From positions 1 to 43,731 of the forward strand of contig JAYUTP010000253.1 of assembly GCA_043755075.1 (NCBI GenBank): DNA of 43,731 bases, given 5' to 3'. This stretch comes from Candidatus Tenderia sp. (GTDB lineage: Bacteria > Pseudomonadota > Gammaproteobacteria > Tenderiales > Tenderiaceae). The translations under genes were made by a program, and so were the position numbers. This document shows, one piece after another, positions 814 to 16,791 of this stretch (the stretch's first letter is position 1; the number at the start of each line of letters is the position of its first letter). The notes beneath the pieces were generated by a model that was not told the DNA's origin, searched no databases, and saw only the letters and a list, made by a program, of their open reading frames with translations.

Positions 814-3378
814 ATGTCAACGGATGTCAAGACAATGACTAATCACCACACAGGTTCCATATCAAACAAAGCACTGCATGCCCACCTGCCAGTAAAAGAG
901 AATCGGTTTGGAGATCTGTATATTGAAGCGTTGGTCGGCACAACATTTGAGTCAGTGAGCGCCACAGAAGAGTTCCAGATGCGTTTCGGGGGTGCCCTCT
1001 TCCATGAACAGACTCTCTACATCATCGTAGGTAGCGATTCTGGCCTACTGCCAAAATATATTATTAACCATGGGCTGCCACGCGGCAGTCGCTATCTATT
1101 TGTGGAGCCCTATGAGATCAGGAATCATCTTGACGAGGATATGATTTCCGCTGAGTTGGCCAATAGAATCACCATCAGTGATGAAGCCCATTGGGTCGAA
1201 CATGCGCATGAGCTAGCGCTGCTAAATTATACTTACTCTGGAAAGATCAGCTACGTTCGCTCATGTGCCGCCCAACAAAATATCCACCCCGATTACCTAG
1301 TTCTCTCCCAAACACTTGATAGGGATCTACGCCATCTGTTCTGGCTCTTTACAACCCAGTTTGACAGCCATATTTTTATCAATAGCCAACTGGCTAATCT
1401 GGCGGAGAACCGCACTCCTGCCATCTGTTTGAAAGAGTGCTTCAAAGGAAAGAGCGCCATTATTCTGGGAGCAGCGCCATCTCTCGATGGCTTGATCCCG
1501 TGGATCAAGAAACATTGTAATGAAGTGATTATTATTGCTGTTTCGAGGATATCGGAACGGCTGCTACAGGTAGGAATCGAGCCCGACATAGTTGTTTCAG
1601 TCGATCCACAAAACGTTAGCTTCTCGGTAAGCAAGGGCATGCTAAACCTAGGAAACAGAACACTTCTCGTCAATGGCAGTCACGCCACACCACTGTTGGT
1701 TGGGCAATGGCCGAACCGCAGTGTATTTTTAGGCCCACGATTACCATGGCATGACGAAGGATTTAACAACTTTTCAACTATTGCCCCAACCGTCACCAAT
1801 AATGCAATTCTTCTGGCACAAGAGTTAGGCTGTAACCAAATAATACTTGCAGGCGTTGATCTCTGTTACAGCGCAAATGGCTACACGCACGCACAAGGAA
1901 CGGCAGAGCGTACCGCTGGAGCGATGATCGGGAAGTTTGATTTTATTGTCACAACAAATTCAGGCACAGCAGCTGATACCAACAAGGGCTATTACGAAGC
2001 GATCAGTGAAATATGTAAACAAGCACAGAAGGCCTTGATTAACGGCTGTAAAATCATAAATCTGGCGGAAACTGCTGCTAAAATAGAAGGCGTTGAGTAT
2101 ATCCATCCTGAAAAAATCATCATCACCCATCCACTTACTGAACCTGCGTTTGATACAATTTCATCACTGCTCGATAAAGATACAGTCGAGGATCGATGCA
2201 GTCACTACAACGCAACAATAAAGCAGATCGACAAAGCCACCAAAGAATTAAGAAACATCATAAGACTCGCCACTGTAGCGCTTAATTGCAATGCAAAAAT
2301 GGAAAAATTATTAAAAACTCCAGATTATTCAAAATACAAAATACAGATGGATAAAATTGAAAGAAAGCTCAATCTCCGCTATGAAGTGATGAGCACCGTT
2401 GTTAAATCTTATAACTCCAGTGGTTTTTCAAAAATCATCACTGCCGATACTGGTGACGACTGGACTTCTGGCGAGCTCTTTGACAAAACAAAAACCTATT
2501 ACGATGAATATATCCACGGATCATCTGTTTTACTGGGACATATCCATGACTCAAAAAAAAGACTTTTAAACCGTCTTGAAGAAGAGAGCCCATCACCAAA
2601 ATTCGAGCGTATGTTTATACAATGGCAACAAGATATTGAATTTGGCCGGGCGATGATATGGAAAGAACGCCATCCAGACATCTATAAAAAATCGTTAGCG
2701 CAAATAAATCAGCACATGAATACCCTGACGAATCAGTTCAACTCATTACTCGATACTGACAACAAAAATTTCGACAACGCCATCCAGAGCCACTTTGCAG
2801 ACCCAAACACTTATGGAAAAATTGTAGAGAATGCTATAGCCCATCATGCCAAAGGTGATGAGGATGGATTAGTACGGTTATCTGAAGGCTTGCTTGAACG
2901 CACTGAAGAACTCTCAGTCCAGACTCTCTTATTGGTCAATGGGCTTATAAGCGAGTTGAAAAATAACTATAAAAAGGCCGAAGATACCTACTACTCAATA
3001 GATCCCAAGGTCAGTCTCGATCTAAAACAGATTGCACTTGAACGGATTGTTAATTTTTCATTGGTGAAAGAAGATTACAAAACAGTACTGCCCGCATTAA
3101 AGCAGCTCTCAGAGATAAGGGTAAGCTATAGACCTTTTTATGCAAGATTTCTCGCGCTTGCAGGAGAAGTTGTGGAAGCGATTGAAGTATATACCCAGCA
3201 TCTTCAATATCAACCTCGTGATATAGATACTTTAGTTGAACTTGGTATGTTGCTAGCGGCGGCTGGTGCAAGAGAGGCCGCCGAAAGTATATTGAACCAA
3301 ATTAGCGAGGCAGATCCAACTCATTCAGGCATTGATAATCTAACGCAGGCACTGGAGACTAACTTGTCTCAACATTAA
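814..3378 (+). CDS. maf: Motility-associated factor (Maf, DUF115/MptE-like) putative flagellin nonulosonate glycosyltransferase with long C-terminal helical/TPR-like extension
   Basis: 854 aa. Central block ...SAIILGAAPSLDGLIPWIKKHCNEVIIIAVSRISERLLQVGIEPDIVVSVDPQ... and ...ILAGVDLCY... are typical of the Maf/DUF115 fold. The C-terminal approx 400 aa are helical, with TPR-like repeats at the end (EDYKTVLPALKQL..., AIEVYTQHLQYQPRDIDTLVELGMLLAAAG). Divergent from fliC. The alternative start is Met8 at 835. Confidence 0.8.
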   Translation: MSTDVKTMTNHHTGSISNKALHAHLPVKENRFGDLYIEALVGTTFESVSATEEFQMRFGGALFHEQTLYIIVGSDSGLLPKYIINHGLPRGSRYLFVEPYEIRNHLDEDMISAELANRITISDEAHWVEHAHELALLNYTYSGKISYVRSCAAQQNIHPDYLVLSQTLDRDLRHLFWLFTTQFDSHIFINSQLANLAENRTPAICLKECFKGKSAIILGAAPSLDGLIPWIKKHCNEVIIIAVSRISERLLQVGIEPDIVVSVDPQNVSFSVSKGMLNLGNRTLLVNGSHATPLLVGQWPNRSVFLGPRLPWHDEGFNNFSTIAPTVTNNAILLAQELGCNQIILAGVDLCYSANGYTHAQGTAERTAGAMIGKFDFIVTTNSGTAADTNKGYYEAISEICKQAQKALINGCKIINLAETAAKIEGVEYIHPEKIIITHPLTEPAFDTISSLLDKDTVEDRCSHYNATIKQIDKATKELRNIIRLATVALNCNAKMEKLLKTPDYSKYKIQMDKIERKLNLRYEVMSTVVKSYNSSGFSKIITADTGDDWTSGELFDKTKTYYDEYIHGSSVLLGHIHDSKKRLLNRLEEESPSPKFERMFIQWQQDIEFGRAMIWKERHPDIYKKSLAQINQHMNTLTNQFNSLLDTDNKNFDNAIQSHFADPNTYGKIVENAIAHHAKGDEDGLVRLSEGLLERTEELSVQTLLLVNGLISELKNNYKKAEDTYYSIDPKVSLDLKQIALERIVNFSLVKEDYKTVLPALKQLSEIRVSYRPFYARFLALAGEVVEAIEVYTQHLQYQPRDIDTLVELGMLLAAAGAREAAESILNQISEADPTHSGIDNLTQALETNLSQH

Positions 3379-3412: not shown

Positions 3413-3679
3413 TCAGGCATAAGCGCCAAGCGCACTGTTTGGCAGCATGTACTCCAGAAGATCAGCAACAAAAATATAATCACCGCGCTGTTGCGCCGCA
3501 ACAACAAGATTTAGCAGCTCTTCCTCATTTTTACCAAGAGCAGCGGAATTTTTCGCCAATAGCGGTTCCAAACAATCCATCAGTCGCATCAAGGAATCAT
3601 TGCCGCGGCTCTCCATGCCCAGTCGAAAGGCCTCAACAGCCTCCACCCTATAGATATCACATTTTTTTTTCTCCGCCAT
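3413..3679 (-). CDS. Hypothetical 88-aa acidic helical protein, last gene of the island operon
   Basis: The ORF lies 10 nt downstream of maf2 on the same strand. I recognise no family. Helical-looking sequence (..LMRLMDCLEPLLAKNSAALGKNEEELLNLVVAAQQRGDYIFVADLLEYML). Confidence 0.45.
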   Translation of the reverse strand: MAEKKKCDIYRVEAVEAFRLGMESRGNDSLMRLMDCLEPLLAKNSAALGKNEEELLNLVVAAQQRGDYIFVADLLEYMLPNSALGAYA

Positions 3680-3689
3680 AAATAAGTCC

Positions 3690-4979
3690 TCAAATAGAGT
3701 CTGGATAATCTGTCCCGGTAATCAATGCCCCTGAACGACTGGCATTGATAAAAGTGACCTGAGGATGCTGGGCGATGTAGCGCTCCAAGTCACGCATATA
3801 GCCACGCAGGTTTTTTGAGGTCAACACCTGATGGCCATGGCCATCCTCCAACCACTCCTGATACCCCAGCTGATCGGTAGCGACTTCAAAGACGGCGCCA
3901 GCAACATGGGTTCTGCTGCCCGGAAACGAGAAGTCACCCCCCATCAGCCAAAGCTGACGACTGCCCATCTTTACCGCTAGATCAACCGCAGCGTGAAACA
4001 CGGTGCCGGAGGCGTAGAGTATGCCTCTGGGATGTTGCAGCGCCAGTTGCTCATAGAGCGGGCTATTAGAGTAAGCGGCGTAACGCGGTCCTGGCCAATG
4101 CTCCATCACGGCACGATGCACAATCGGAAAGTAGACCAATGGCGTATTCGCCAGCAAGGAGAGATCAACATCAAAAAGTTTTATGATGTGGTCAGGTGCG
4201 CCATCGATAGTCACTACCACATCAGGAACGATACCGTTCTGCATTAGCGGTTTGAGCGCTGCATCAACCGCAAACAGATAGATGCCAGACTTGCGCTCAC
4301 GGAGCCGTTGATAGTGTTCACTCAATGATGGCCCGGCGCCCGCCACATAACAGCGCTGGTTTCCATAGCGACCAAAGAGTGAATCAACATCACCATCGGA
4401 TTTAACAAGTTCGACACTCGAAGCTATCTGCTGCTGGAATAGCGGATTACTCCTGACCCTGGCGTTGATATAGTCGGTATCAAGTTCCAGCACAATTTGA
4501 TCGCGCACTTTAGCCGCCATTGGATCAACAATTTTGAGACACGCTGGCACCACCGCAAACGGAACACGAATATCGGTGCGCGCAGTTGCCTGTGTCAGCC
4601 TGACGCGGTGATCTGCCAACCAATCACTCTGATCAAAATAATGCAGACAACTTCTGAAGAGTTCCAGATTCAGTATTACCACATCGAGCTGCTGCAACGG
4701 CTGACGTTGTAATAGTTCACGCTGTAAATCACCTGTCGCCACGCCATAGATCCATGCCGACGACGCGCCCTCCGCCACCCGAGTGGCCTGGAGTCTCGCC
4801 TCACGTTTGCTATCAAAACAACTGCTCAGGTGAATGCCATCCACCAGCAGGGTGGGCGCTTCCGTTTCACTGACAAAATGGGCTCGTTCTGCCGAATCAA
4901 GCAGGATGAGCGACTGATATAAGACCGGCCAGCGTCGTTCGATAATCGTCAGGTTACGCTGCAAAAATCCGCTGTCCAT
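3690..4979 (-). CDS. maf: Second Maf (DUF115/MptE-like) protein, short form lacking the C-terminal helical domain
   Basis: 429 aa. Maf-type N-terminus (FLQRNLTIIERRWPVLYQSL) and core CYVAGAGPSLSEHYQRL..IYLFAVDAALKPLMQNGIVPDVVVTIDG ... LWLMGGDFSF. Confidence 0.8.
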   Translation of the reverse strand: MDSGFLQRNLTIIERRWPVLYQSLILLDSAERAHFVSETEAPTLLVDGIHLSSCFDSKREARLQATRVAEGASSAWIYGVATGDLQRELLQRQPLQQLDVVILNLELFRSCLHYFDQSDWLADHRVRLTQATARTDIRVPFAVVPACLKIVDPMAAKVRDQIVLELDTDYINARVRSNPLFQQQIASSVELVKSDGDVDSLFGRYGNQRCYVAGAGPSLSEHYQRLRERKSGIYLFAVDAALKPLMQNGIVPDVVVTIDGAPDHIIKLFDVDLSLLANTPLVYFPIVHRAVMEHWPGPRYAAYSNSPLYEQLALQHPRGILYASGTVFHAAVDLAVKMGSRQLWLMGGDFSFPGSRTHVAGAVFEVATDQLGYQEWLEDGHGHQVLTSKNLRGYMRDLERYIAQHPQVTFINASRSGALITGTDYPDSI

Positions 4980-4985: not shown

Positions 4986-6953
4986 CTACTCCGCTGGCCT
5001 AAGTGTAAAAAAGAATCCCGGTAACTCACCGCCATCGCAGAATGATTCATCCAGTTCCGCTAGCGAAAAGACAATCTGCGTCAACGCGGTGGGTGAGCAC
5101 TCGCGATGATAGAGCATCGGAAATGCTGCACAGGCGGATGGCTGCCAATCGATCACCAGTCCCACCTGCTTATCCTTCACCGTAATTGAGCCGCTCTCTC
5201 CGCCTAATCCGTTAGTGACCGAGACCAACGTCGAAGCCGAGTGGGTATGAAATACATCGCGGTCGATCGCAAAAGACTCTACCAACTTGCCGCCATTGCG
5301 CGTCTGCACCGTTACTGCGCCAGAAAACGCCTCGGGCAAAAGGGTGATGAAGCCAGTTCTCACTGTGCCATAAGGACGTTTCCAGCCGGGAAATTCAACA
5401 CCACAGCCGACCTCTTCACCTGCCCGCGCGATACGTAGATGCTTGATAATATCACCCTCTTTAGTGGTCACTGCGGCACGCAGATAGAGGTAGCGGTCAT
5501 CGTAACGAATGTGCGCTTCAACACGCTCAAGATCAGTGATCCGTTTATGTTGCGTGACCTGTTCAATCACCGTGTTGGCGCTGTAAAAATCAGCGCCAAG
5601 ATCAATGGATGTGAAGTAGCCGTGAGGCAACGTACCAATAATTGGTGTCCAACCATGCCGTTTAAAAGCAAGGGCATCAATCGCCATGCCACGCCGCAGG
5701 TTCAGCCGCAATCGTAGTGTGGCGGTCGCAATGTCCAACATTATCCCTTCCGGGTCACGCGTCACTGTCACACCTTCACAGAGCCCTTGTGACGTTCCCA
5801 CCACCGGAAAAGCTTCATGCACACCGCCATCAAAATGGCTGTCGCTGCCCAACGCCGACAACAACCGCTGCACCTGATCACGCGCCTCGCCCCAACGTGT
5901 TGCGGTGATATGAGTACGAATATCACTTGCCCACAACTCGCAGAGTGTGCGCCACTTAGACTGATTCACACTGCCCCTCAAGCGCTGATAGAGGCGATGG
6001 CACATCGTATTGATCCACAAATCATCACGTCCGGTAATGGCCCAGCGGCTGACATTATATTTGGCCTGTTTTTTTACCACGATCGGCTGTGATACTGAGG
6101 TGAGGCAGAGCATTTCGCCAGAACTATGCGCCAGATGTTGATTCAGTGCTGTCGTGGGTAATACAAGTTCAATCGGGTAGTCATCTGCGAGTTTTTCGAT
6201 CAGCCCCGTTAAGCGCCGCCATTCACCTTCAGGATGAAGCTTCGATTCGACGTCATAACGGCCTGGTCGGTAATCAAATACCTCGGCATCATTGCAATAG
6301 AGCGCCAGCGGTACTCGATTGGTGGCCAGCCGCTTTTCGAAATAATCAAGATAGTCCACTAGGCGAATATCGCCGTGCATGTAGCGCTGAAGTTTCTGAA
6401 ATAGAATCGAATCAGACCAAAGCACTGGCAGCGTGATATTGCCTTCGTGATCACTGGCATGACTCGGCAGGTTCTCCGCATCCCAACTGCGACCATGGGC
6501 CAACGTCACATTATCGCGATCCATGATGATGCCCGCATAGCCGACATCCTGATACAGCTCTAGCATGCCGCTCGAATAAGCCATTTCGTTGACCAGCACC
6601 AGCGTCGGTTTTACACCTAGCAGTTCTGTATAAGTCTCCAAGCCGAGGTATTGATTCCACTGATTGACCTCAAAGGGAATCAACGGGCCAATGATCTGAC
6701 TGTAACCACTGCCAATCAACTCTGTACGCCCCTGCGCCAGCGCCGTTTTGAAACGTGTCACCCATTCAGGTGCCAGAGTATTTATCTGTAATAACGTCCA
6801 GCCGGTCAGTTCGATACCGATTTTAAAATCATGCTGCTCGATCAATTCAAGCAATGGTATATAACACGTCTTTATCACCGTCAGGCGTTGTTCTTCCGCG
6901 ATGGAGGAGTAAGCAAGATTGAGATGGAATATGGTAAACGCTTGTTTCATCAT
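4986..6953 (-). CDS. GH57-like glycoside hydrolase-fold protein (function unknown in this context)
   Basis: Strings resembling the GH57 conserved regions: FHLNLAYSS (HQP region), GRTELIGSGYSQIIGPL (GQLEI region), LVNEMAYS (nucleophile Glu region), YCNDAEVFDY (HDDGEKFG acid/base region), WASDIRTH. I trimmed the start to ATG 6953 (MMKQAF..), which forms an ATGA overlap with the stop of the upstream gene. The 26 codons upstream in the track ORF overlap that gene. Confidence 0.55.
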   Translation of the reverse strand: MMKQAFTIFHLNLAYSSIAEEQRLTVIKTCYIPLLELIEQHDFKIGIELTGWTLLQINTLAPEWVTRFKTALAQGRTELIGSGYSQIIGPLIPFEVNQWNQYLGLETYTELLGVKPTLVLVNEMAYSSGMLELYQDVGYAGIIMDRDNVTLAHGRSWDAENLPSHASDHEGNITLPVLWSDSILFQKLQRYMHGDIRLVDYLDYFEKRLATNRVPLALYCNDAEVFDYRPGRYDVESKLHPEGEWRRLTGLIEKLADDYPIELVLPTTALNQHLAHSSGEMLCLTSVSQPIVVKKQAKYNVSRWAITGRDDLWINTMCHRLYQRLRGSVNQSKWRTLCELWASDIRTHITATRWGEARDQVQRLLSALGSDSHFDGGVHEAFPVVGTSQGLCEGVTVTRDPEGIMLDIATATLRLRLNLRRGMAIDALAFKRHGWTPIIGTLPHGYFTSIDLGADFYSANTVIEQVTQHKRITDLERVEAHIRYDDRYLYLRAAVTTKEGDIIKHLRIARAGEEVGCGVEFPGWKRPYGTVRTGFITLLPEAFSGAVTVQTRNGGKLVESFAIDRDVFHTHSASTLVSVTNGLGGESGSITVKDKQVGLVIDWQPSACAAFPMLYHRECSPTALTQIVFSLAELDESFCDGGELPGFFFTLRPAE

Positions 6954-8707
6954 TCTCTCCTCAACAACGCCATCACGCGGGAGGCGAGTTTCACTGCGCC
7001 ATCGCAACCGTTCATTTTTTCTCCCGCACAAACAGCCAATTTTTTTGCGCTATTGGCATTCGTCATCAACTCCACCAATCCCTCCACCGCGCCTTCTGTA
7101 TTCAACGCTAATCTCGCCACATCCGCCGCTTTAAATGCCGCCATCTCCGCCTGTTGAGCATCAACGGGATGATAGGAAACCACCGGTTTTCCCAGCTTTA
7201 ATAGTTCAAACAGCGTAACGCCATAAGGGGTGATGGCGTAGTCGGATTCCATCATCAACTGCGATAAATTTTCTGGTGCTTGTTTAAGTTGCCAACTCAA
7301 ACGCGGTTTGGCTGGCAAGCTTGGAGATTTTGCATAAGGTCCTTGCACCCAAGTGATATTTGCTGTTGTTGGTAACAAACGGTCAAGCATCGCGGGCCAC
7401 AACTCGCCCAGGCCGTAATGATCACTGCCACCGGTCATAACAATCACTCGATTACCCTCGCTCCATTCGCGTGAGTTGAATGCCGGATCGATGAAGTAGT
7501 GATCCCAACCAAACGTTACTTTATTTACGCCCGCTTGTTTTAAATGACTGGGAGTGACATAAAACGAGGGAATATAAATCAGATCGAGCAGATCATGTTG
7601 TTCAAACAAACCATCCACAGCAACCGTGACAATCTGCTGCTGACGGAGTTGCGAAAGCAGCGCCGCAATATTGCCCGGCAGACGATCAACGGCAACATCA
7701 AACACTACCGCCTCAGGACGATAGGCCTCCATTCTTTTCAATAGCGTTTCACTGAATTTTTGCGGCGCAACAAAGGTGTGTGGCAGCAACGCTAATCCAG
7801 GGAGCGCCACCTCTCCGCCCACAATCATCAGCTCAACCCCGGCAGAGAAGTGATCTTGCAACGCCCGCGCCAGCCGCGTGGTTCTGCGCAGATGGCCTAG
7901 GCCAACCGCCTCGCCACACTGCGTCAGCAGCAGAATTTTTGCCGATTTATCCATGACGCCCTTCTGCCGCACCTGTTGATTGATCAGGCGCAACGGCTCA
8001 TCACGCTGTAACTCATCAATCACCCACGCCAATGAGACAATGGAATCATCTGCATGATGCTGATACCAACGTCGATAGACCTCCGCCATGAACTGATAGT
8101 CAGAGGGGGTATCGACAGAGATGCGCTGTTCGATGCGAGAGTAGATCTCGTCATCGTCAACCGTCACCACGGTCAGCGCCGTCGCCTTTTTCAGTGAGCT
8201 GCCGACATGCTCACGATCACTCGGCTCAGTCGCCAGCTCAACAAGCCGGTTCCAGGTCTTGAGTGGGTAAGGCATGAACCCTTCGTGCATTGTGCGATTT
8301 TCTGGGCTAGTAAATTTTAAGGAGACAACATCAGCCTCTGGTGCCATGAGCAGACCGTTGATCATGCGCGAGACAATGGTCGGCTCGATCAACGGTGAGT
8401 CACCGCAAAAATAGACGACGATCTGTGGTTGATATTGTTTGACGATGGCATCGACACGCCCCACTAGATCATTCACATCCCCGGCAAAGGCAAACACTGT
8501 TTTACCTGTTTGCCGCGCCCACTGCACCAGTGGCTGGTTGTACTCATCGGCAGTGGTGGCCAGCACAATCGCATCGAGTTCCGGGATCTTTTCCAGCCGT
8601 TCAAAGAGGCGAGCGATCAACGGCTTGTCGGCCAGGTCAAGCAGATGTTTACCCGGCAAACGGCTGGAGTTAAGACGGGCACCGATAACACCTAATACCT
8701 TGCTCAT
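6950..8707 (-). CDS. Fusion protein: SpsF/PseF-like cytidylyltransferase (N-terminal) + PseG/SpsG-like UDP-sugar hydrolase, GT28-type (C-terminal)
   Basis: The N-terminus VLGVIGARLNSSRLPGKHLLDLADKPLIARL is the ARxxSxRLPGK cytidylyltransferase signature. From about aa 255, KILLLTQCGEAVGLGHLRRTTRLARAL resembles the PseG N-terminal G-x-G-H-x-x-R motif. The C-terminal half is Rossmann-like. It is a single uninterrupted 585-aa ORF. Confidence 0.7.
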   Translation of the reverse strand: MSKVLGVIGARLNSSRLPGKHLLDLADKPLIARLFERLEKIPELDAIVLATTADEYNQPLVQWARQTGKTVFAFAGDVNDLVGRVDAIVKQYQPQIVVYFCGDSPLIEPTIVSRMINGLLMAPEADVVSLKFTSPENRTMHEGFMPYPLKTWNRLVELATEPSDREHVGSSLKKATALTVVTVDDDEIYSRIEQRISVDTPSDYQFMAEVYRRWYQHHADDSIVSLAWVIDELQRDEPLRLINQQVRQKGVMDKSAKILLLTQCGEAVGLGHLRRTTRLARALQDHFSAGVELMIVGGEVALPGLALLPHTFVAPQKFSETLLKRMEAYRPEAVVFDVAVDRLPGNIAALLSQLRQQQIVTVAVDGLFEQHDLLDLIYIPSFYVTPSHLKQAGVNKVTFGWDHYFIDPAFNSREWSEGNRVIVMTGGSDHYGLGELWPAMLDRLLPTTANITWVQGPYAKSPSLPAKPRLSWQLKQAPENLSQLMMESDYAITPYGVTLFELLKLGKPVVSYHPVDAQQAEMAAFKAADVARLALNTEGAVEGLVELMTNANSAKKLAVCAGEKMNGCDGAVKLASRVMALLRRE

Positions 8708-8711: not shown

Positions 8712-9926
8712 TCACTGCATTTCGATAATCACGGCGTCGATCACCGCTTGGGCACGGGCCACCGCCTCAGCCCGATCGCCCCCTAGGGTGATGACAAAAC
8801 CGGCGCGTTTGGTGTGATCACTCATCGTGCCAATACGCTCGCCGGGCTCGACAAAAAATCCGAGGCGATGAACCCATGGCTTAGTCGCAAATTCAGCAAC
8901 GCGATGAATCGTCTTCACTACCCCCGGCTCGGGAAAGAAATAACGGATTGCCACGCCCTTGTGCTGTGCTGGCAATAACATACTGGGATCGGGTGTTTCA
9001 CCCAACGCCAGCTGAATCGCCGCGCCGATCAGATCAACCTCAGTCCCGAGCGGCACTTGGTCGCTGGAAAACCAACCACCCGAGAGGCGTGCTGCAATTT
9101 CAATCACCTTCGGCCCCTCGGCCGTCATCACCATATCACCCTTGGCGATACCATTCATAATGCCCATAGAACGCCCAGCCTGCTCCGCCAGCGCGATGAT
9201 CGCTTGGCGCTCACTGCTGCTCAGGCGTGTGGGTTGTTCACCGCCATTCTCGATAATGTAAGGTGAAAAACGCTCCAAATATTCATAGTTGCGATCGACA
9301 AAACCCGAGGTGTAACCCACGCCACCCACCATCACACTCTCACTACTCACCTGCGGTCCGGTCAGATACTCCTCCACCATAACTCGGCCGGTGGCTGATT
9401 GTGATTTGGCATGTTGGTAGGCCCAGCTCAGATCAATAGATTCATTCAACAGCAACACGCCACGGGCTCCACGACTATCGACAGGTTTGATAACAAGTCG
9501 CGGGCCGCGCTCTTGCATGAACTGCTGCAACTGTTGCAGCGACAGTACTTGACTGAACCAGGGAATGGCGATGCCATCACGCGCGAAACGTTGCTTCATC
9601 AGCAGCTTGTCGGCGGCGAGATGGGCCGTCTCCAAACTCAGCCCCGGCAATCCCAAGGCATCCGCGACCGAGGCCACGGTCAACGGCACATCAGCAGCCA
9701 TGCAGATAACGCCATCAAGTTTGCAGCAAGTGTGATGATAGTCGCGAGCAATAGTAATCGTCTGTTCCACATCGTAGGTGCTGGCGATCAGGCGATCATC
9801 GGCAAACTCAAAGCCAGGCGCATCGGGGTTCATATCACTCACCACCACACGCAGTCCCATCGCCTTGGCACGTTTGATCCCTGGTACCGCCTCAGTACCG
9901 CCGCTGACTACCATTAAAGTTTTCAT
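8712..9926 (-). CDS. ATP-grasp family carboxylate-amine ligase
   Basis: 404 aa. Pre-ATP-grasp Rossmann region (MKTLMVVSGGTEAVPGIKRAKAMGLRVVVSD), LVIKPVDSRGARGV, VMVEEYLTGPQVS, VIEIAARLSGG. These match the ATP-grasp layout. Confidence 0.75.
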   Translation of the reverse strand: MKTLMVVSGGTEAVPGIKRAKAMGLRVVVSDMNPDAPGFEFADDRLIASTYDVEQTITIARDYHHTCCKLDGVICMAADVPLTVASVADALGLPGLSLETAHLAADKLLMKQRFARDGIAIPWFSQVLSLQQLQQFMQERGPRLVIKPVDSRGARGVLLLNESIDLSWAYQHAKSQSATGRVMVEEYLTGPQVSSESVMVGGVGYTSGFVDRNYEYLERFSPYIIENGGEQPTRLSSSERQAIIALAEQAGRSMGIMNGIAKGDMVMTAEGPKVIEIAARLSGGWFSSDQVPLGTEVDLIGAAIQLALGETPDPSMLLPAQHKGVAIRYFFPEPGVVKTIHRVAEFATKPWVHRLGFFVEPGERIGTMSDHTKRAGFVITLGGDRAEAVARAQAVIDAVIIEMQ

Positions 9927-9947: not shown

Positions 9948-11036
9948 TTAAGCTACACACCTGGCATATAAAACATAATCGAATGGACTTTGCCTGTGAT
10001 GCGCAAAATAGCAACGATAATCTGGGTTAATAGCATGGATCATCAATGGTACTTGCCACATATCATCGGGTTCATGATAGGCGCTAATTATCAGCCTTGG
10101 CCGATCACGCATCAAGGTTTCAGCCGCCCCTGCCAAGGCATTAACCTCAGAGCCCTCTATGTCCATCTTTATTACATCAACCTTCAAGCCTCGCTCTCGG
10201 GAAAAATCATCGATGCTGGTGACAGCTATTTTTTTATCACCGCTGTCTGAAACATGATATTGCATACTATTTTCAAGTGCGGTAGTAAAACTCAATGTAG
10301 TCGTCTCTTTCCACATTCCAAATTGACATGGAACTACCACTGAGTTTAATTTTTCCGCCTCGATAGTTACCAGCAATCTCTGATAATTATCGGCCTCCGG
10401 CTCGAATGAGTAGATAGTGCAATTTTTATCTAGCCCATGGGAAAATTCCAGAGCGCTATCCCCAGACCAGGCACCACCGTCGAGAATGACATCGCCTCTC
10501 TCTAGCGACACCAGTGGATGGTAATACTGTGGAAATTCAGCAGGGATAAAAAACTCGGAATCGAGGGTAAGGCGATATTTAAGCAAGGCCCGATAAGTGG
10601 CGCGTGATGACTCATCTGACATCAATGCATAAGCCGCTTCTATCTGCTCCGCCGCACCCAGTATCTGCTCCGGGACATAGTGTTTCTTCCATCGCTCAAA
10701 ATCAAAAGCAAATCCAAGATAAAAATATTTGACGCCCAATTGTTGCAGCTGTCTGCCAATATCCATACCCCAATCACTGGCCACAAACACAATAGTGTTT
10801 TGATAGTCTCGTAACTGTTCTGGGGCGATAATTGGAATGCCAGAGATGAGGCCACCCTGCCTTTGCCGGTCATTATCACAGACACAGACAATGGTGATGC
10901 CAAAGGATTGCAGTACGCGTATCGCATGCGTTCCACTACCTCCGGCACCAAAAACAATTGCCTGGCTAACATCACATAGGACATCATCTATCGCTAAAAA
11001 ACGATGCGAAATTTCTTCTAACAATTCACTTAGCAT
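9948..11036 (-). CDS. FkbM-family SAM-dependent methyltransferase with N-terminal Rossmann-like module
   Basis: C-terminal half: GDVILDGGAWSGDSALEF...IYSFEPEADNYQRL...VDVIKMDIEGSEVNALAGA (FkbM hallmark). N-terminal half: IVFGAGGSGTHAIRVLQSFGITIVCVCDNDRQRQGGLISGIPIIAPEQL. Confidence 0.75.
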   Translation of the reverse strand: MLSELLEEISHRFLAIDDVLCDVSQAIVFGAGGSGTHAIRVLQSFGITIVCVCDNDRQRQGGLISGIPIIAPEQLRDYQNTIVFVASDWGMDIGRQLQQLGVKYFYLGFAFDFERWKKHYVPEQILGAAEQIEAAYALMSDESSRATYRALLKYRLTLDSEFFIPAEFPQYYHPLVSLERGDVILDGGAWSGDSALEFSHGLDKNCTIYSFEPEADNYQRLLVTIEAEKLNSVVVPCQFGMWKETTTLSFTTALENSMQYHVSDSGDKKIAVTSIDDFSRERGLKVDVIKMDIEGSEVNALAGAAETLMRDRPRLIISAYHEPDDMWQVPLMIHAINPDYRCYFAHHRQSPFDYVLYARCVA

Positions 11037-11106: not shown

Positions 11107-12819
11107 TCAACGAGACCACATCTGATCCAATGTCTGGCCTGCCAGAAGCATCGGCGTTATATCTTCCTCTTCATCAATGACACAGTGAACCAACGCCGGG
11201 CCATGATGGGCAAATGCCTCTTGCAGCGTCGCCTCCACTGCCCCACTCTCACGTATCGTGAAGGCACGAATACCATACCCTTCGGCAATCACAGCGAAGT
11301 CTGGATTCCACTTGTTACCGGTGGTGGGATCATCTTGCCAGTTAAAATTCTGAAACTGCGAGACGATGCCGAGTCGGTGATTATCAAGCACGATAATTTT
11401 CACCGGCAGATTGTGTTCCGCCACGGCGCCCAGCTCCTGCATGTTCATCTGCAACGATCCATCACCGACAAAACAGAGCACCAATGCATCCTTGTCCTGT
11501 AGCTGTGCACCCACTGCACTCGGCAAATCGTAACCCATCGCGCCGTGGCCACCCGATGTCAACAGTGCGCGCCGTGGATAATCAAAGCTGAAGTGGCGCG
11601 CCACCCAGTGTTGATGAGAACCGACGCCAGTGACAGCCAGCACGCGCTGGCCACGACTCAGACGATCAGCTGTTTCCACCACCCACTGCGGTTTGAATCG
11701 GCTGTGTTGGTCATAGCTCAGGGCGTACTCTTGCCGCCAGGCATCAATCTGTTGAAGCCATGCTGACCACTGTGGCAGTTTCACTGTTTTCAATTCCGGC
11801 AGCAGTGGCAGCAGCGCCAGCAACGCCGCTTTGGCATCGGCATTGATCAACAAGTCGGTGCGTACCCGGCCATGTTTTGCCTCATTGGCATCAAGGTCGA
11901 TACGCACAATCCTGGCACCCGGTGCAAAACGGTCAAACTGATTGCCGGTCTGGCGCACATCGAGACGCGAGCCAATTGCGATGACCAGATCGGCATTCTG
12001 GATCGCCTTGCCCGCATACTGATTGCCGGTGTGACCGTGGAAGCCCAAGGACAACTCTGAATCGGATGGCATCGCCCCCAGCCCGAGCAGCGAGTGGGAA
12101 ACGGGGATGCTATAAGTGGTCGCCAGCATGCGCAACTCTTCATGCGCCTGTGCCAGCAATACCCCCTGGCCAGCGATAATGATCGGGCGCTGCGCGTTAT
12201 TCAGCCATGCAGCTAGCTGCGCGATGCCAGAGAAGATGCCAGCGAGATCGCTATCCTGTTGCTGCATTTTCAATATTGGCAGCACTACGGCAGGAGCCGA
12301 TAGTTCACCACGCTGCACATTCATCGGCATGTCGATCAGCACCGGGCCAAAGCGGCCACTGCTGGCGATATAAAATGCCTGATCCATCACCCGTGCCAGA
12401 TCGTCCTGATGCTCGACCAAAAACTGCGCCTTGGTGATTGATGCCATCAGGGCACAACTATCGACCTCCTGAAAGCCGCGCTGCCGTACTGGCAGGTCAC
12501 GTTTGAGATCGCCGGTTCCAACCTGACCCGTAATCACGATCAACGGCGTATTGTCAAAATAGGCGTCAGCCACGGCGGTTATAAGATTGGTGACACCCGG
12601 CCCGGAGGTGACCATCACTACCTGCGGTTGCATTCTCAGCCGCGATACCGCCAATGCCGCGTAACCCGCCCCCTGTTCGTGACGGCCACAAAAAATATCC
12701 AGCCCTCTATTTTTAGCCTCGTGAAGAATCGGTGCGATAGTGCCACCTGGATAAACATAGAGCCGTTCACAGTCGTGGCGAACGAACGCATCAACAATAA
12801 CTTCAACACCTGTTGTCAT
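11107..12819 (-). CDS. Thiamine-diphosphate-dependent enzyme, acetolactate synthase large-subunit-like
   Basis: 570 aa. N-terminal Pyr domain (YVYPGGTIAPILHE...RHEQGAGYAALAVSRL...TSGPGVTNL). C-terminal ThDP motif GDGSLQMNMQELGAVAEHNLPVKIIVLDN (GDG-X-N type). Confidence 0.85.
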   Translation of the reverse strand: MTTGVEVIVDAFVRHDCERLYVYPGGTIAPILHEAKNRGLDIFCGRHEQGAGYAALAVSRLRMQPQVVMVTSGPGVTNLITAVADAYFDNTPLIVITGQVGTGDLKRDLPVRQRGFQEVDSCALMASITKAQFLVEHQDDLARVMDQAFYIASSGRFGPVLIDMPMNVQRGELSAPAVVLPILKMQQQDSDLAGIFSGIAQLAAWLNNAQRPIIIAGQGVLLAQAHEELRMLATTYSIPVSHSLLGLGAMPSDSELSLGFHGHTGNQYAGKAIQNADLVIAIGSRLDVRQTGNQFDRFAPGARIVRIDLDANEAKHGRVRTDLLINADAKAALLALLPLLPELKTVKLPQWSAWLQQIDAWRQEYALSYDQHSRFKPQWVVETADRLSRGQRVLAVTGVGSHQHWVARHFSFDYPRRALLTSGGHGAMGYDLPSAVGAQLQDKDALVLCFVGDGSLQMNMQELGAVAEHNLPVKIIVLDNHRLGIVSQFQNFNWQDDPTTGNKWNPDFAVIAEGYGIRAFTIRESGAVEATLQEAFAHHGPALVHCVIDEEEDITPMLLAGQTLDQMWSR

Positions 12820-12835: not shown

Positions 12836-14092
12836 TTAATAACGTGATGTTCTGTCATAGAGCGCGATGATTCTTGATTCTGCCACTCCCTTCTCCTGCA
12901 ACACATTGAGCAGGCTTTCCTGGCCACCATAAGTGGAAATCACTATCGGAAAGCTGTCGCTGCACCACGCCTGCTCCGGGATCTGTTCGGGCGACAACAC
13001 CGGCAACGAATGGTAGTGGTGCCCCTGCTTCAGCGGATCACTATCCACCAGAACATAACTGGCATCCAGATCAAACAGGCGCGTCAGCAGTGCCAGATAT
13101 TCAGTGTGCTGCCCTGCGCCCCAGATCATGATCTGCCGCGCACTATGCAAATTTTCGATGCGGCGTCTCACCAGTTCTACGTTGTTTTTCCACACATCAA
13201 GATAGGTGCGTGCCGCAACCAAACCGCTGGCATCATGGCCAACATCTGCCTGAATCTGACCATGCTCTGCCACCACCCGCCAGCCGTTGTAGCCCTCCAT
13301 CGCCTCGCCATGAACAATGCGCCAACCATTTTTTGCCAGCAGTCGTTTCAGCGAGGTCTTACTAAAATGCGTGAGATGCTGCACGGTGAAGAAGCCAACA
13401 ATATCGCGATCCTGTAACTCGGCGGCACGATCCACCACCGGCACCTCGATCACCAACGCAACAGAATGCTTCGACAAGCTGTGAAGCTGGGCCAGAAAGC
13501 CATCGGGATCGGGCAGGTGTTCAAGTACGTGAAACATGGTGATCACATCCACCTGCGGCAGACTCTCCAAGCCATTAAAATCGCAGCGCGTAAAGTTGAT
13601 GCCGGGGGCATCGTGCGCCACGTTGCTAAGCGTTTGTTCATCGACATCAATACCGTAACGCGACAATGTCTGCGGCAGCGCCTTGAGCAGATCGCCATTC
13701 CCACACCCCACATCCATCAGTGATTCTGCCGCTGGGAAGCGTTCACTCAACCACGTCACCTGTTCACCGATGCGCCCGGCGGTGTGGCCATAACTGCAAC
13801 CCGCCTTGTCAAACAGCACCTGAAACCCTGTTGGGGTGTAACAAGGATTGGTGTAGATCAGGCCACACTGTTGGCAACAGACCACGCGATGATCGGCGCG
13901 ATTGCGGCCATCCTGGTCGGTAAAAAACTGAAAATCGTTCAGGGCGAAGAGTTCATCTTCAGCACTGCTCTGACATAAGGGGCAGTGACGAAACGTTTGT
14001 AGTGGCTCACTGCTGGCACTGCGCTGTAAACGCATTACCTTGGTCCATGGCAACTCATTCATATTTATCATCTCGCCATTATCTTGCATCAT
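12836..14092 (-). CDS. Class I SAM-dependent methyltransferase with N-terminal Cys4 zinc ribbon and C-terminal Rossmann-like module (sugar C-/N-methyltransferase-like architecture)
   Basis: CPLCQS...CCQQCGLIYTNP (zinc ribbon), LMDVGCGNGDLLKAL (SAM motif I), VDVITMFHVLEHLPDP, then IMIWGAGQHTEYLALL...DSDPLKQGHHYHSLPVLSPEQI. The first ATG overlaps the upstream stop (ATGA). A downstream Met start is also possible. Confidence 0.7.
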   Translation of the reverse strand: MMQDNGEMINMNELPWTKVMRLQRSASSEPLQTFRHCPLCQSSAEDELFALNDFQFFTDQDGRNRADHRVVCCQQCGLIYTNPCYTPTGFQVLFDKAGCSYGHTAGRIGEQVTWLSERFPAAESLMDVGCGNGDLLKALPQTLSRYGIDVDEQTLSNVAHDAPGINFTRCDFNGLESLPQVDVITMFHVLEHLPDPDGFLAQLHSLSKHSVALVIEVPVVDRAAELQDRDIVGFFTVQHLTHFSKTSLKRLLAKNGWRIVHGEAMEGYNGWRVVAEHGQIQADVGHDASGLVAARTYLDVWKNNVELVRRRIENLHSARQIMIWGAGQHTEYLALLTRLFDLDASYVLVDSDPLKQGHHYHSLPVLSPEQIPEQAWCSDSFPIVISTYGGQESLLNVLQEKGVAESRIIALYDRTSRY

Positions 14093-15156
14093 CTTGAAGG
14101 TACCGACATTCCGTTTCGCGGCAGAGGAAAATTAATTTCAGTGCCCCCTTGTTGCTGGGAGTGGTAGAAAGCGAGCGCCATTTCCAGTGCGGTGCGTGCC
14201 TCTTTTGCAGTTGATGCCACACGCAGGCACTCTTTATTTCCGAGCAACGCCGCCACTGCGGAATCCCAGGCAGTTCCCTCATAGGCAGAGGGTGGCATGT
14301 TAATCGTGGTCGGTAGCAATTCATCAAAGCCACTCATGCGTGCGCTTGAGGCAGGACGATAAAGCGAGAGGCCGTCATTACCGATTCTGATCCGCCCTTT
14401 AGTGGCGACGATATCGAACTCGAAGATGAAGTAATTCTTTACCTGTCCTTCGATAGTAGCGACTACACCATTGGCAAAGTAAAACTGCCCGACACCGCCA
14501 GCATCGGCCAATTTTTTAGCGCTGTAACGATAACCGCTCTGCTTATCTTTTTTGGCTTTGATGACCACCCTTCCCTGCGCCGCCAGCGGCTCACCAAACC
14601 ACCAGTGCAATACATCAAAGGCATGGGTACCGGTGTGAATCAGACTGCCGGAGAAGAGCACGTTGACGGAAAGAACGCGGCCAATGGTCTCGTTGTCGAT
14701 CATCCACTTCACCTGCTGGTAATCGTTGGACCAGCGCCGCATGTGGCCGGTAACAAGCAGGGTCTTACTCTTGGCGAGTGCATCCACCATCTCATCCGCC
14801 TGCTCCAGCGATGTCGCCAATGCTTTTTCACAGAAGATGGCCGGTATTTTGTGATTGATCGCTGCCATCACCATCTCGTGGCGCTCGGTGGCATAAGCCG
14901 AGATGCTGAGCAGATCAATCCGTTCCTCTGCCAGCATCTGGCGGTAATCATGATAAAGCGCATCAACACCATAACGTTCGGCAAACTCGCGACGCGCCTT
15001 CTCATCCACATCACTGCCGGTCTGAATCCGGCAACCATGTTTGAGATAGCCACCGACATGGGTACAGGGTTTAACGCGTAATAGATCATTTTCCATTCGC
15101 CAAGCGATGCGACCCAGTCCGATGATTGCTGCGTGTGGTTCATCATTCATCCTCAT
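14089..15156 (-). CDS. Gfo/Idh/MocA-family NAD(P)-dependent oxidoreductase
   Basis: AAIIGLGRIAWRM..., ...YHDYRQMLAEERIDLLSISAYATERHEMVMAAINHKIPAIFCEKALATSLEQADEMV is the typical EKP-type motif region. 4-nt overlaps with both neighbours. Confidence 0.8.
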   Translation of the reverse strand: MRMNDEPHAAIIGLGRIAWRMENDLLRVKPCTHVGGYLKHGCRIQTGSDVDEKARREFAERYGVDALYHDYRQMLAEERIDLLSISAYATERHEMVMAAINHKIPAIFCEKALATSLEQADEMVDALAKSKTLLVTGHMRRWSNDYQQVKWMIDNETIGRVLSVNVLFSGSLIHTGTHAFDVLHWWFGEPLAAQGRVVIKAKKDKQSGYRYSAKKLADAGGVGQFYFANGVVATIEGQVKNYFIFEFDIVATKGRIRIGNDGLSLYRPASSARMSGFDELLPTTINMPPSAYEGTAWDSAVAALLGNKECLRVASTAKEARTALEMALAFYHSQQQGGTEINFPLPRNGMSVPSR

Positions 15157-15917
15157 CCCATGTACAACCCACCGTTGATGTTGAGTGTTTGACCGGTGAT
15201 GTAGCTCGCCTTGTCCGAGAGCAGATAGGCAATGGCATTGGCCACCTCCTGCGCTTCTCCAGCACGGGCCAGTGGTACATGCAGAGCGATTTTGTCGCGA
15301 CCGACATCGGAATTTAGTTCGCCTTGAGTCATCTCGGTGACGATCAAACCGGGTGAAACACAGTTGGCGCGAATAGCATTGGCCGCACCAACCCGTGCCA
15401 GCGATTTAGTCAGCGCGATAATGCCTGCTTTGGTAACGGCGTAATGCACGGCCAACATACCACCGAGCTGTCCACCCGATGAGGCGACATTGACGATTAC
15501 GCCGCCCTTTCCCACCATGCGCACCATGATTTCCTGCGAACAGATAAAGGCCCCTTTGAGATTGACATCGATCATGCGATCCCAATCTTCATCGGTAATA
15601 GTGGCGAAGGGTTTTTGTTGCAAAATGCCCGCGTTATTCACCAGCCCATGGATGGCACCGCAACGTTGCATTGCGACATCCATTGCCCCTTGCACCTGCT
15701 GGCGATCAACGATATTAACCTGACGGCAGACCAGCGGGACTGCAAACTGCTGCAACTGCGCTGCTGCACTCTCGGCATCAGACTTGCGACTGTTGTACCA
15801 AAGTTCCAGAGCGTAGCCCTGTGCCGCTAGAACTTTGGCCGTGGCAAGACCAATGCCACGTGTTCCGCCCGTAATGATGACCAGTGCTGGTGATTGCTCC
15901 ATTGCATTACTCTCCAT
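15153..15917 (-). CDS. Short-chain dehydrogenase/reductase (FabG-like)
   Basis: VIITGGTRGIGLATAKVLA (TGxxxGxG), NNAGI, and a catalytic S...YxxxK pattern (ASSGG...YAVTKAG). Confidence 0.85.
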   Translation of the reverse strand: MESNAMEQSPALVIITGGTRGIGLATAKVLAAQGYALELWYNSRKSDAESAAAQLQQFAVPLVCRQVNIVDRQQVQGAMDVAMQRCGAIHGLVNNAGILQQKPFATITDEDWDRMIDVNLKGAFICSQEIMVRMVGKGGVIVNVASSGGQLGGMLAVHYAVTKAGIIALTKSLARVGAANAIRANCVSPGLIVTEMTQGELNSDVGRDKIALHVPLARAGEAQEVANAIAYLLSDKASYITGQTLNINGGLYMG

Positions 15918-15924: not shown

Positions 15925-16791
15925 TTAACGCTGTTGCCACTCGTCGCGAATATTCTGTAGCGGCCGCAATCCATCCTTGGGATCGGCGCGCCAATCGCGA
16001 TCAGCCAACTCGGCGACTGACGGCACTTTGCAACCATCACCATCCGCCGTGAGACCACGTTTTAGGGTAGTGATAACCTCGGCCATCTGCGCTGGCAACC
16101 AACAGTGTCCCGCCGCGTACTCCGCTCCCTTGGCATCGAGATCGAGGTGAAATTCGATCAACTCAGCAGCCCAATGATAGATGGCGCGATAGATCACGGC
16201 GGGATCGACGGTGTGATCAGACCAACCGACTGTACACGCGGCGGCGTCACGAATCGTGGCGATAGCCGCCAGATTGCAATCCTTGGCCAGCGTTGGATAG
16301 GCAGAGACGCAGTGCAGCAGCGCCAACTCCTTACCGCCCGCATTGCGCATCACCTGCATGGCATGGCTAATCTCAGGCAGGATCGCCATGCCGGTGGAGA
16401 GGATGACGGGTTTGCCGGTATCGACACACTTGACCAGCAACTCATCCCACAGCAGTTCATAAGAGGCGATCTTGTAAAAATCAACATAAGGCAGCAGCTC
16501 ATCAACGGCTTCAAGATAGAAGGGTGTACAGCTAAATTCTATTTTTTTCTGTTGGCAGCGTTCATAAAGTTTCGGCAGGAATTCTAGCGGCAACTCCCAC
16601 TCCTGGCGTTTGCGATGGGCCTCACTCTTGGCCAGGATCACCGGGGCAAAGAGTTGATCGATCTTGAAGAGCTGGAATTTAACGGCATCGCAGCCAATCT
16701 CGGCAGCGGCATCGATGAAGTCAAGGCAACGAATCAGATCACGACTATGGTTGCTGGAGACCTCGGCAATAAATTTTGGCATCTGTTTCAT
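15925..16791 (-). CDS. NeuB/PseI-family nonulosonate (sialic-acid-type) synthase homologue, TIM-barrel domain only (no SAF domain)
   Basis: FIAEVSSNHSRDLIRCLDFIDAAAEIGCDAVKFQLF, YKIASYE, GKPVILSTGMA, LLHCVSAYP and GWSDHT match the NeuB barrel. The protein ends at 288 aa, without the approx 60-aa C-terminal SAF/antifreeze-like domain. Confidence 0.7.
   Translation of the reverse strand: MKQMPKFIAEVSSNHSRDLIRCLDFIDAAAEIGCDAVKFQLFKIDQLFAPVILAKSEAHRKRQEWELPLEFLPKLYERCQQKKIEFSCTPFYLEAVDELLPYVDFYKIASYELLWDELLVKCVDTGKPVILSTGMAILPEISHAMQVMRNAGGKELALLHCVSAYPTLAKDCNLAAIATIRDAAACTVGWSDHTVDPAVIYRAIYHWAAELIEFHLDLDAKGAEYAAGHCWLPAQMAEVITTLKRGLTADGDGCKVPSVAELADRDWRADPKDGLRPLQNIRDEWQQR

Follow-up and report, generated by a model that had tools for sequence, protein, structure and literature searches.

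How is the amine that PseH acetylates in pseudaminic acid (Pse) synthesis handled when PseH is missing? The question is raised by a flagellin glycosylation island in a 43,731-nt stretch of DNA from Candidatus Tenderia sp. (the window). Genes of the Pse pathway lie there together with a gene for an ATP-grasp ligase (positions 8712-9926), and no PseH was found among them. The original prediction, made from the DNA letters, was that the ligase acylates the 4-amino group of the PseC product with a free acid and ATP, in place of acetyl-CoA. We find that the ligase is an orthologue of SfmE of Shewanella oneidensis MR-1. We suggest that it joins a nitrogen-free hydroxy or methoxy acid, late in the pathway, to the amine that PseH would acetylate. 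Resting on sequence comparison and on analogy with MR-1, this reading is given a probability of around 0.45.

The ligase gene and its product

The open reading frame (ORF) at 8712-9926 encodes 404 amino acids, with an ATG start and a TGA stop. It is on the minus strand, as are all of the island genes described below with one exception. Four nucleotides (gatt) separate its TGA from the ATG of a 585-aa gene (6950-8707) that encodes a cytidylyltransferase fused to a PseG-like GT-B domain, and the originally noted spacing is thus borne out from the sequence. The protein matches the Pfam families LAL_C2 (60.3 bits, cut-off 29.4, residues 328-403) and ATP-grasp_3 (41.3 bits, cut-off 23.2). Its NCBIfam matches are sub-threshold only, to purD, purT, Ddl, dapdiamide synthase and BacD. 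The nearest solved sequence is that of the Bacillus licheniformis L-amino acid ligase BL00235 (3VOT; phmmer E = 1.7e-13).

An AlphaFold2 model calculated from 40 homologues has a mean pLDDT of 94.8. Its top structural match is again 3VOT, with a TM-score of 0.84-0.87, compared with 0.80 for BacD and 0.78-0.79 for PurT. There were 560 matches in the PDB at E <= 0.001, and the best 50 of the 560 are ATP-grasp enzymes throughout. K147, E185, D264, E276 and R280 are invariant across the alignment of the 40 homologues. These residues lie in the usual motifs of ATP-grasp enzymes, their nucleotide- and Mg-binding roles being assigned by analogy. Ligases of identical sequence, within the same island, are found on seven metagenome contigs. 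Among the candidates scored, 3216 proteins are homologous at E <= 1e-10. Best matches in metagenome-assembled genomes (MAGs) of Candidatus Tenderia and Chromatiaceae (83% and 82% identity) relate the host to these groups. Sequence and model together indicate that 8712-9926 is a real, conserved gene encoding an ATP-grasp carboxylate-amine ligase of the L-amino acid ligase type. It is the sole type of amide-forming enzyme encoded by the island.

The pathway departs from the canonical route at the PseH step

The canonical Pse pathway comprises PseB, C, H, G, I and F. Two of these are present in the island. The PseB gene, for the inverting UDP-GlcNAc 4,6-dehydratase (17921-18919), scores 549 bits against TIGR03589 (cut-off 407.75), with 72% identity to MR-1 PseB. 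The PseC aminotransferase (16788-17924) scores 450.9 bits against TIGR03588 (cut-off 423.5), with 38% identity to its MR-1 counterpart. Both exceed the NCBIfam equivalog cut-offs. PseC is predicted to make the 4-amino group that becomes N7 of the nonulosonate.

The PseH, PseG, PseI and PseF equivalogs are not reached. A short NeuB-family synthase of the SfmA type (15925-16791; 288 aa, without the SAF domain) matches Pfam NeuB with 193 bits and is 61% identical to SfmA, but has 162 bits against the PseI equivalog (cut-off 340.25) and likewise misses the NeuB equivalog cut-off of 400. The fusion protein is of the SO_3269 type, 35% identical to the 574-aa MR-1 protein. Its residues 6-130 match CTP_transf_3 (80.5 bits), and residues 257-521 match the PseG family TIGR03590 with 48 bits (cut-off 153.55). 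The PseF equivalog gave 15.9 bits against a cut-off of 205.7. The PseG-, PseI- and PseF-like parts match broader Pfam families only. Given that PseB and PseC are canonical and the later enzymes fall far below the cut-offs, the route leaves the canonical pathway exactly at the PseH step. Such a departure fits a 4-amino sugar that is left free or is differently acylated.

None of the 14 island proteins matches a GNAT or hexapeptide acyltransferase family in Pfam at E <= 0.01. The NCBIfam scan, likewise negative, covered 13 of the 14, the exception being the Maf protein with tetratricopeptide repeats (TPR), scanned at E <= 1e-5 only. The scan of window positions 1-19.3 kb in all six frames added 84 ORFs, read from stop to stop and 60 aa or longer; they contain no acyltransferase, and their sole Pfam match is a fragment of flagellin. 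No GNAT or hexapeptide acyltransferase was found in the 16 flanking genes scanned. The original prediction that the island holds neither a GNAT nor a left-handed beta-helix acyltransferase is upheld by these Pfam, NCBIfam and all-frame scans, though it spoke of 16 island proteins where we count 14 genes.

The FkbM-family protein was considered as a hidden NeuD-type acetyltransferase and rejected. Only its Rossmann N-domain matches NeuD/PglD (profile positions 2-65 of 202), and there is no beta-helix.

The window contains a new member of the sfm-type island

The MR-1 operon sfmABCDE functions in flagellin modification (Bubendorfer et al. 2013, PMC3765264). SfmA is a 290-aa NeuB, SfmB a 581-aa thiamine diphosphate (ThDP) enzyme, SfmC a FabG-like reductase, SfmD a 395-aa methyltransferase and SfmE a 412-aa ATP-grasp protein described as a putative carboxylate-amine ligase; SfmE is required for full flagellin modification (PMC3765264). 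The window ligase and MR-1 SfmE (SO_3265; P0143, 412 aa) can be aligned without gaps over 398 residues, with 47% identity (E = 6e-124).

The MR-1 locus (SO_3259-SO_3273) has counterparts for 12 of the 14 window genes. The weakest match is that of the SfmD-type methyltransferase (25%, E = 1.7e-15). The long Maf with TPR is likened to Maf-1 (SO_3273) by domain layout and position only, SO_3273 lying beyond the compared MR-1 set. The only window genes with no MR-1 partner are those for a GFO/IDH/MocA oxidoreductase and an FkbM methyltransferase. Since there are 12 counterparts, SfmE included, the window holds a new member of the sfm-type island. Judged by its sequences, the island shares with MR-1 the SfmA to SfmE types (short NeuB, ThDP enzyme, short-chain dehydrogenase/reductase (SDR), methyltransferase and ATP-grasp protein), the GH57-like protein, the fusion protein, PseC and PseB. 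It also shares the Maf-2/GlfM and Maf-1 flanks, the setting in a flagellar cluster, and a locus without PseH.

There are also differences. The window adds the GFO/IDH/MocA oxidoreductase and the FkbM methyltransferase, whereas MR-1 has two further methyltransferases. In the window the ligase gene is followed by the fusion gene, but in MR-1 sfmE is followed by two reversed methyltransferase genes and then the GH57-like gene. The host of the window island, unlike MR-1, is a Tenderia/Chromatiaceae-like gammaproteobacterium.

The original prediction took the enzyme solution to be new, yet an orthologous SfmE had already been described genetically in 2013. That study (PMC3765264) is the only relevant report we found in the literature on ATP-grasp proteins linked to nonulosonic or pseudaminic acid. 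In a 2023 preprint the neighbouring MR-1 proteins are still 'proteins of unknown function', and SO_3269 is noted as an oversized cytidylyltransferase (bioRxiv 10.1101/2023.12.03.569772).

The MR-1 glycan and the sfm deletions constrain the reaction

The main modification of MR-1 flagellin has a mass of 538 Da, with minor forms of 524 and 510 Da (PMC3765264). Its inner residue is C11H18N2O6 (274 Da), a mono-N-acetyl pseudaminic acid. The outer part is nitrogen-free, C9H16O7 plus zero to two O-methyl groups (236-264 Da); it gives rise to no oxonium ion and comes off readily in the ion source. The authors saw no clear orthologues of PseH, PseG, PseI or PseF in the MR-1 genome (PMC3765264). The 2023 preprint confirmed the masses and reported extra ones such as 595 and 581 Da (bioRxiv 10.1101/2023.12.03.569772). 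In a cryo-electron microscopy study of the MR-1 filament the density of the glycan is visible, and the glycan was left unmodelled.

A single N-acetyl group is expected if the acetamido group derived from UDP-GlcNAc (the future N5) is kept and PseH is absent. By analogy with MR-1, a mono-N-acetyl Pse carrying a nitrogen-free unit fits both the absence of PseH and an acid ligated to the free amine. All of the nitrogen in the main glycoforms is in the Pse, so any amide made by SfmE that is present in the product must link one of the Pse amines with a carboxylate belonging to the outer unit. The original prediction allowed the free acid to be an amino acid or a hydroxy acid, and the main glycoforms, which have no extra nitrogen, argue against the former. 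By arithmetic on the published formula, an acyl increment of C9H16O7 corresponds to C9H18O8 as the free acid; having a single degree of unsaturation, this would be an acyclic polyhydroxy acid. Were the acyl group to leave as a neutral lactone, its lability and the absent oxonium ion would both be accounted for. By the same arithmetic C9H16O7 equally fits a residue of a deoxynonose or a methyl-octose.

In-frame deletion of sfmE leaves the filament and some motility, and the flagellin has a mass between wild type and unmodified; in the deletions of sfmA to sfmD flagellin is at the unmodified mass (PMC3765264). As the sfmE mutant is still partly modified, SfmE is not needed to make, activate or transfer the inner sugar. 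By analogy, the phenotype suggests that the window ligase decorates the sugar late, or that the downstream enzymes can work with the free amine. It contradicts the original placing of the acylation before PseG and PseI.

Conservation of the island and exchange of its cassettes

We compared the island with related loci, giving 37 in all, of which nine are from Shewanella. The loci were collected via ATP-grasp homologues and are thus not independent of the ligase. The contig searches used as queries the window protein, a Cellvibrionaceae relative, an S. electrica relative and a Shewanella alignment; S. oneidensis itself was not among the Shewanella loci that they recovered. The sources include Gamma- and Alphaproteobacteria, Desulfobacterota, Gemmatimonadota, Acidobacteriota, Marinimicrobia, Margulisbacteria, Planctomycetota, SAR86 and a Syntrophomonas MAG.

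The GH57-like gene is present in 35 of the 37 loci, the fusion protein in 32, the SDR in 31, the short NeuB in 30 and the SfmD-type methyltransferase in 29. PseC (24/37) and PseB (23/37) were counted within 10-kb flanks that limit both figures. The gene after the ATP-grasp gene is the GH57-like gene in 24 loci, and that before it is a methyltransferase gene in 14 and an SDR gene in 10. As the GH57-like gene and not the fusion gene usually follows the ATP-grasp gene, the 4-nt coupling of ligase and fusion gene is specific to the lineage of the window.

Pfam scans of the related loci covered 99 and then 80 unmatched ORFs, plus 20 in-cluster ORFs taken singly. They revealed methyltransferases, transketolase halves, aminotransferases, iron-dependent alcohol dehydrogenases, an aldo-keto reductase and a pyruvyl transferase. 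Neither GNATs nor hexapeptide acyltransferases figure among the families listed for the 37 loci, down to those with two or three members, a level at which single occurrences could escape. On this evidence the lack of a dedicated acetyltransferase appears to be a conserved property of the module, which extends the originally noted absence of PseH well beyond the window.

The enzyme that forms a carbon-carbon bond is variable. It is acetolactate synthase (ALS)-like in 17 loci, while other loci have a transaldolase/FSA or a split transketolase in its place. A swap of the ALS-like gene for a split transketolase plus FkbM separates S. electrica from Shewanella sp. ES07-05 (L046/L047). Across this swap the SDR is 54% identical, the ATP-grasp protein 88% and the products of the other genes 72-96%, with the ATP-grasp, NeuB and methyltransferase proteins at 80-89%. 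From these comparisons the SDR appears to belong with the carbon-carbon bond-forming enzyme, and the ligase to be indifferent to the cassette present.

A proposed reaction and the alternatives

In the reaction that we favour, PseB and PseC would produce UDP-4-amino-4,6-dideoxy-beta-L-AltNAc, as judged by their family scores. Its 4-amino group would not be acetylated by PseH, so that the divergent PseG-like domain, the short NeuB and the cytidylyltransferase would carry a mono-N-acetyl Pse forward. The ATP-grasp protein would take an acid that lacks nitrogen and is hydroxylated and O-methylated, convert its carboxylate to an acyl phosphate, and join it to the free amine, the future N7. The acid itself is proposed to be built by the other enzymes of the island. 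The sfmE deletion suggests that ligation would be a late decoration of the free or CMP-activated nonulosonate and not an obligatory step on the UDP-sugar. By this analogy the probable role of the ligase is to decorate the sugar, and not to stand in for an early step that the pathway cannot do without. The target would be the same PseC-made nitrogen as that of PseH (a GNAT, TIGR03585), but fold and chemistry are unrelated. PseH transfers acetyl from acetyl-CoA, whereas the ligase would perform ATP-dependent acyl-phosphate ligation of a free acid. Moreover PseH is obligatory for the downstream steps, and SfmE is not.

The ATP-grasp fold, the C-terminal domain of L-amino acid ligase type, the invariant motifs, the PseH-less island, the canonical PseB and PseC followed by divergent enzymes, the orthology with SfmE and the formula of the MR-1 glycan all support N-acylation. 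Precedents are the purine enzymes PurT and PurD and, on genetic grounds, the Clostridium difficile protein CDR20291_0245, all described below. Thus the central part of the original prediction, ATP-dependent acylation of the 4-amino group, gains from the absence of PseH, the lack of any other amide-forming enzyme type and the MR-1 glycan. Its early, obligatory timing is what the sfmE genetics contradict.

Some observations weigh against the reaction as drawn. The MR-1 outer unit is described as coming off easily in the ion source (PMC3765264), behaviour that would suit an ester or a glycosidic linkage. The difference between the sfmB-D and sfmE deletions is not predicted by a plain scheme of making an acid and then ligating it, although dead-end intermediates could be the cause. 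The ATP-grasp protein remains 88% identical despite exchange of the ThDP cassette, and its failure to co-vary with the ThDP/reductase cassette weakens the idea that the ligase is tuned to the product of that cassette. The original suggestion that the acid might come from the ThDP/reductase block is weakened in the same way. Lastly, a GH57-like protein with an intact catalytic Glu and Asp is encoded next to the ligase in 24 of the 37 loci, and could attach the outer unit as a sugar.

This GH57-like neighbour (4986-6950) is a three-domain protein of 654 aa that matches Glyco_hydro_57 with 48.5 bits and is 38% identical to its MR-1 counterpart. Its AlphaFold2 model has a pLDDT of 87.9, and in a Foldseek search it matched a GH57 4-alpha-glucanotransferase and GH38 mannosidases. 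Two residues, E122 and D221, are invariant and line up with Glu123 and Asp214 in the Thermococcus litoralis 4-alpha-glucanotransferase (1K1W), which we take to be the nucleophile and the acid/base. Sequence and model suggest that the protein is apparently an active glycosidase. Its conservation beside the ligase with Glu and Asp intact therefore makes glycosidic attachment of the outer unit possible. The protein was also considered as a CE4-like de-N-acetylase that would make the mono-acetyl state. We rejected this, as fold and sequence match GH57/GH38 and the catalytic Glu and Asp are invariant. In the program-made ORF list this gene has a TTG start at 7031 and an 82-nt overlap with the fusion gene; gene calls on the identical contigs give an ATG start at 6950, a 1-nt overlap and the 654 aa quoted here.

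Such considerations lead to an alternative in which the PseC amine is free or otherwise handled, and the outer unit is a sugar in glycosidic linkage, put on by either the GH57-like protein or the PseG-like GT-B domain. The role of the ATP-grasp protein would then lie elsewhere, namely within outer-unit synthesis, on a carboxylate (such as the addition of an amino acid to minor glycoforms), or in forming an ester. The glucanotransferase-like fold with its catalytic Glu and Asp, the ready loss of the outer unit in mass spectrometry, the fit of C9H16O7 to a deoxynonose or methylated octose, and the insensitivity of the ATP-grasp protein to the cassette swap are all consistent with this. The 595 and 581 Da species lie 57 Da above 538 and 524 Da, which we interpret as compatible with a glycine amide. 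Yet the lack of an oxonium ion from the outer unit is unusual for a glycosyl residue, and deletion of sfmE removes most of the mass and not just a minor glycoform. The main glycoforms hold only the two nitrogens of Pse, so that any amide in them has to involve a Pse amine. Furthermore, we know of ATP-grasp ester formation only from peptide macrocyclases, which counts against the ester version. Overall we regard glycosidic attachment as doubtful. Direct replacement of PseH is less probable again. Here the ATP-grasp protein would acylate UDP-4-amino-4,6-dideoxy-AltNAc before the PseG-like and NeuB-like enzymes, which would then handle a bulky N-acyl sugar. The divergence of the downstream enzymes from PseG, PseI and PseF, and a NeuB without SAF, fit an unusual N-substituent, and the ligase gene is only 4 nt from the fusion gene. 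But in most related loci it is the GH57-like gene that follows. Loss of an obligatory early step should also abolish modification as deletion of sfmA does, whereas the sfmE mutant keeps its filament and partial modification. Replacement of PseH at this step is thus unlikely.

The remaining possibility is that a GNAT encoded elsewhere in the genome is PseH and makes normal Pse5Ac7Ac, to which the ATP-grasp protein and its neighbours add an unrelated decoration. The DNA analysed is 43.7 kb of the organism, bacterial genomes are rich in GNATs, and Pse genes are sometimes scattered. Nevertheless the inner sugar of MR-1 has one acetyl group and not two, and its authors saw no clear PseH in a complete genome. 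The NeuB-, PseG- and PseF-like enzymes are non-canonical, and no acetyltransferase family is recurrent in the 37 loci. We consider an unlinked PseH to be quite unlikely.

The favoured reaction, late ligation of an acid to the Pse amine, may extend to the family as a whole. SfmE proteins, whose homologues number in the thousands and span at least eight phyla, could be nonulosonate N-acyl ligases that define a widespread PseH-independent branch of Pse synthesis. The amine would be acylated, using ATP, with a custom polyhydroxy or methoxy acid made by exchangeable cassettes (ALS-like, split transketolase or transaldolase/FSA) together with the SDR and methyltransferases. We put this forward tentatively, from the comparison of sequences, as possible rather than probable.

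Comparison with other ATP-grasp enzymes

The L-amino acid ligases BL00235 (3VOT), BacD/YwfE and RizA provide the best structural and sequence matches to the window ligase and have the LAL_C2 domain in common with it, but the identity is only 14-21%. The known enzymes join two free amino acids, whereas nothing in the main MR-1 glycoforms indicates an amino acid substrate. The glycinamide ribonucleotide (GAR) transformylase PurT and the GAR synthetase PurD are ATP-grasp enzymes that acylate an amine borne on a sugar phosphate with a small carboxylic acid. They differ from the window ligase in belonging to the purine pathway, with 14-18% identity and without the LAL_C2 context.

A parallel in context is the ATP-grasp protein CDR20291_0245 of Clostridium difficile, encoded in the type B flagellin glycan locus and required for the peptidylamido-sugar (PMC5207246). 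It is likewise an ATP-grasp protein of a flagellin glycosylation locus near a sugar aminotransferase, with a genetic requirement and a terminal N-acylated sugar. That sugar is a hexose-type amino sugar on a trisaccharide, however, and not a nonulosonate; the two are likened by description. Plesiomonas shigelloides flagellin was discarded as a comparison, the strain studied having a standard legionaminic acid cluster. The SugarBase preprint contained no Shewanella data.

Filament assembly, phage recognition and surface properties are all governed by the decoration of flagellin with nonulosonates. In the window and 36 related loci the PseH-less module is seen to be conserved across Gamma- and Alphaproteobacteria, Desulfobacterota, Gemmatimonadota, Acidobacteriota, Marinimicrobia, Margulisbacteria and others. 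With a module conserved across phyla, solving the function of SfmE would provide an annotation for the thousands of genes that currently go by the names 'ATP-grasp domain-containing protein' and 'biotin carboxylase'. If sugars are indeed N-acylated by the ligase, this would be a new way to diversify sialic acid-like sugars, and a tool for making non-natural Pse derivatives.

Other genes of the island and its flanks

Between the short NeuB gene and the ligase gene lie five further genes. These encode a FabG-like SDR of the SfmC type (15153-15917; adh_short_C2, 196.8 bits; 39% identical to SfmC), the GFO/IDH/MocA oxidoreductase (14089-15156; Pfam GFO_IDH_MocA; no MR-1 counterpart, in 5 of the 37 loci), the SfmD-type S-adenosylmethionine-dependent methyltransferase (12836-14092; 418 aa, Methyltransf_23), the ALS-like ThDP enzyme of the SfmB type (11107-12819; 46% identical to SfmB) and the FkbM-family methyltransferase (9948-11036; Methyltransf_21, NCBIfam fkbM_fam), whose NeuD-like Rossmann N-domain is also called C2185-like_N. 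The ThDP enzyme has all three TPP_enzyme domains and scores 492.7 bits against the NCBIfam ALS equivalog, under the cut-off of 538.

Three genes at the other end are concerned with transfer to flagellin. The short Maf flagellin glycosyltransferase (3690-4979) is of the Maf-2 type (MptE-like, 116 bits; 35% identical to SO_3259). It adjoins an ORF for an 88-aa GlfM-like helper of Maf-2 (3413-3679), in the same position as in MR-1, with 29% identity over 69 aa to SO_3260 (E = 1.8e-5). GlfM is an adaptor that lets Maf-2 bind and glycosylate flagellin (bioRxiv 10.1101/2023.12.03.569772). The divergent long Maf with a C-terminal TPR region, of the Maf-1 type (814-3378, plus strand; MptE-like, 143 bits, and TPR_19), has the layout of SO_3273. 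The window therefore appears, by its sequences, to hold both a tripartite system (Maf-2, GlfM and flagellin) and a bipartite one (Maf-1 with TPR).

No clear sigma-28-type promoter was seen upstream of pseB on inspection by eye. Positions 19252-43731 of the window contain a flagellar cluster followed by housekeeping genes. The flagellar genes scanned were flgL, flgK, flgJ, flgI, flgH, a rod protein gene (flgL to flgG), flgA, flgM, flgN and a gene for a YcgR-like PilZ protein. The housekeeping genes were those for sulfite/nitrite reductase, DUF934, DsbC, trmD, rimM and the end of ffh. The flgL gene adjoins the island, and flagellin, FlaG and FliD genes lie downstream on contigs encoding the identical proteins.

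Variation among the related loci

In most of the related loci from other phyla the counterpart of the short NeuB shares 58-65% identity with it, which suggests a synthase subfamily that is distinct and highly conserved. Among solved structures, 6NCS is a relative of similar length. In the Gammaproteobacteria MAG ND3_Bin_17 (L007, 1-3170) a closely related island has three extra genes directly upstream of that for the short NeuB, encoding a full-length 353-aa NeuB, an iron-dependent alcohol dehydrogenase and a small protein with a ThDP domain. From these genes it seems that the short NeuB may not be the sole synthase in every case.

Exchangeable cassettes are also present in L011, L013, L015, L030, L044, L045, L051, L054 and L068, and in L012 and L020. 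The split transketolase cassette is usually accompanied by FkbM. The window is unusual in combining an ALS-like enzyme with FkbM and the GFO oxidoreductase.

A second, distant ATP-grasp protein (366 aa, 26% identity), followed by a 196-aa methyltransferase, is encoded in three Shewanella/Glaciecola loci (L047, 14834-16528; L051; L061). In a Phaeodactylibacter MAG and an actinomycete MAG (L027, L029) distant ATP-grasp homologues (28-31%) adjoin DegT-type aminotransferases and 4,6-dehydratase-like genes, with no NeuB, SDR or GH57 partners. From their arrangement, the pairing of ATP-grasp ligases with sugar aminotransferases may be more widespread.

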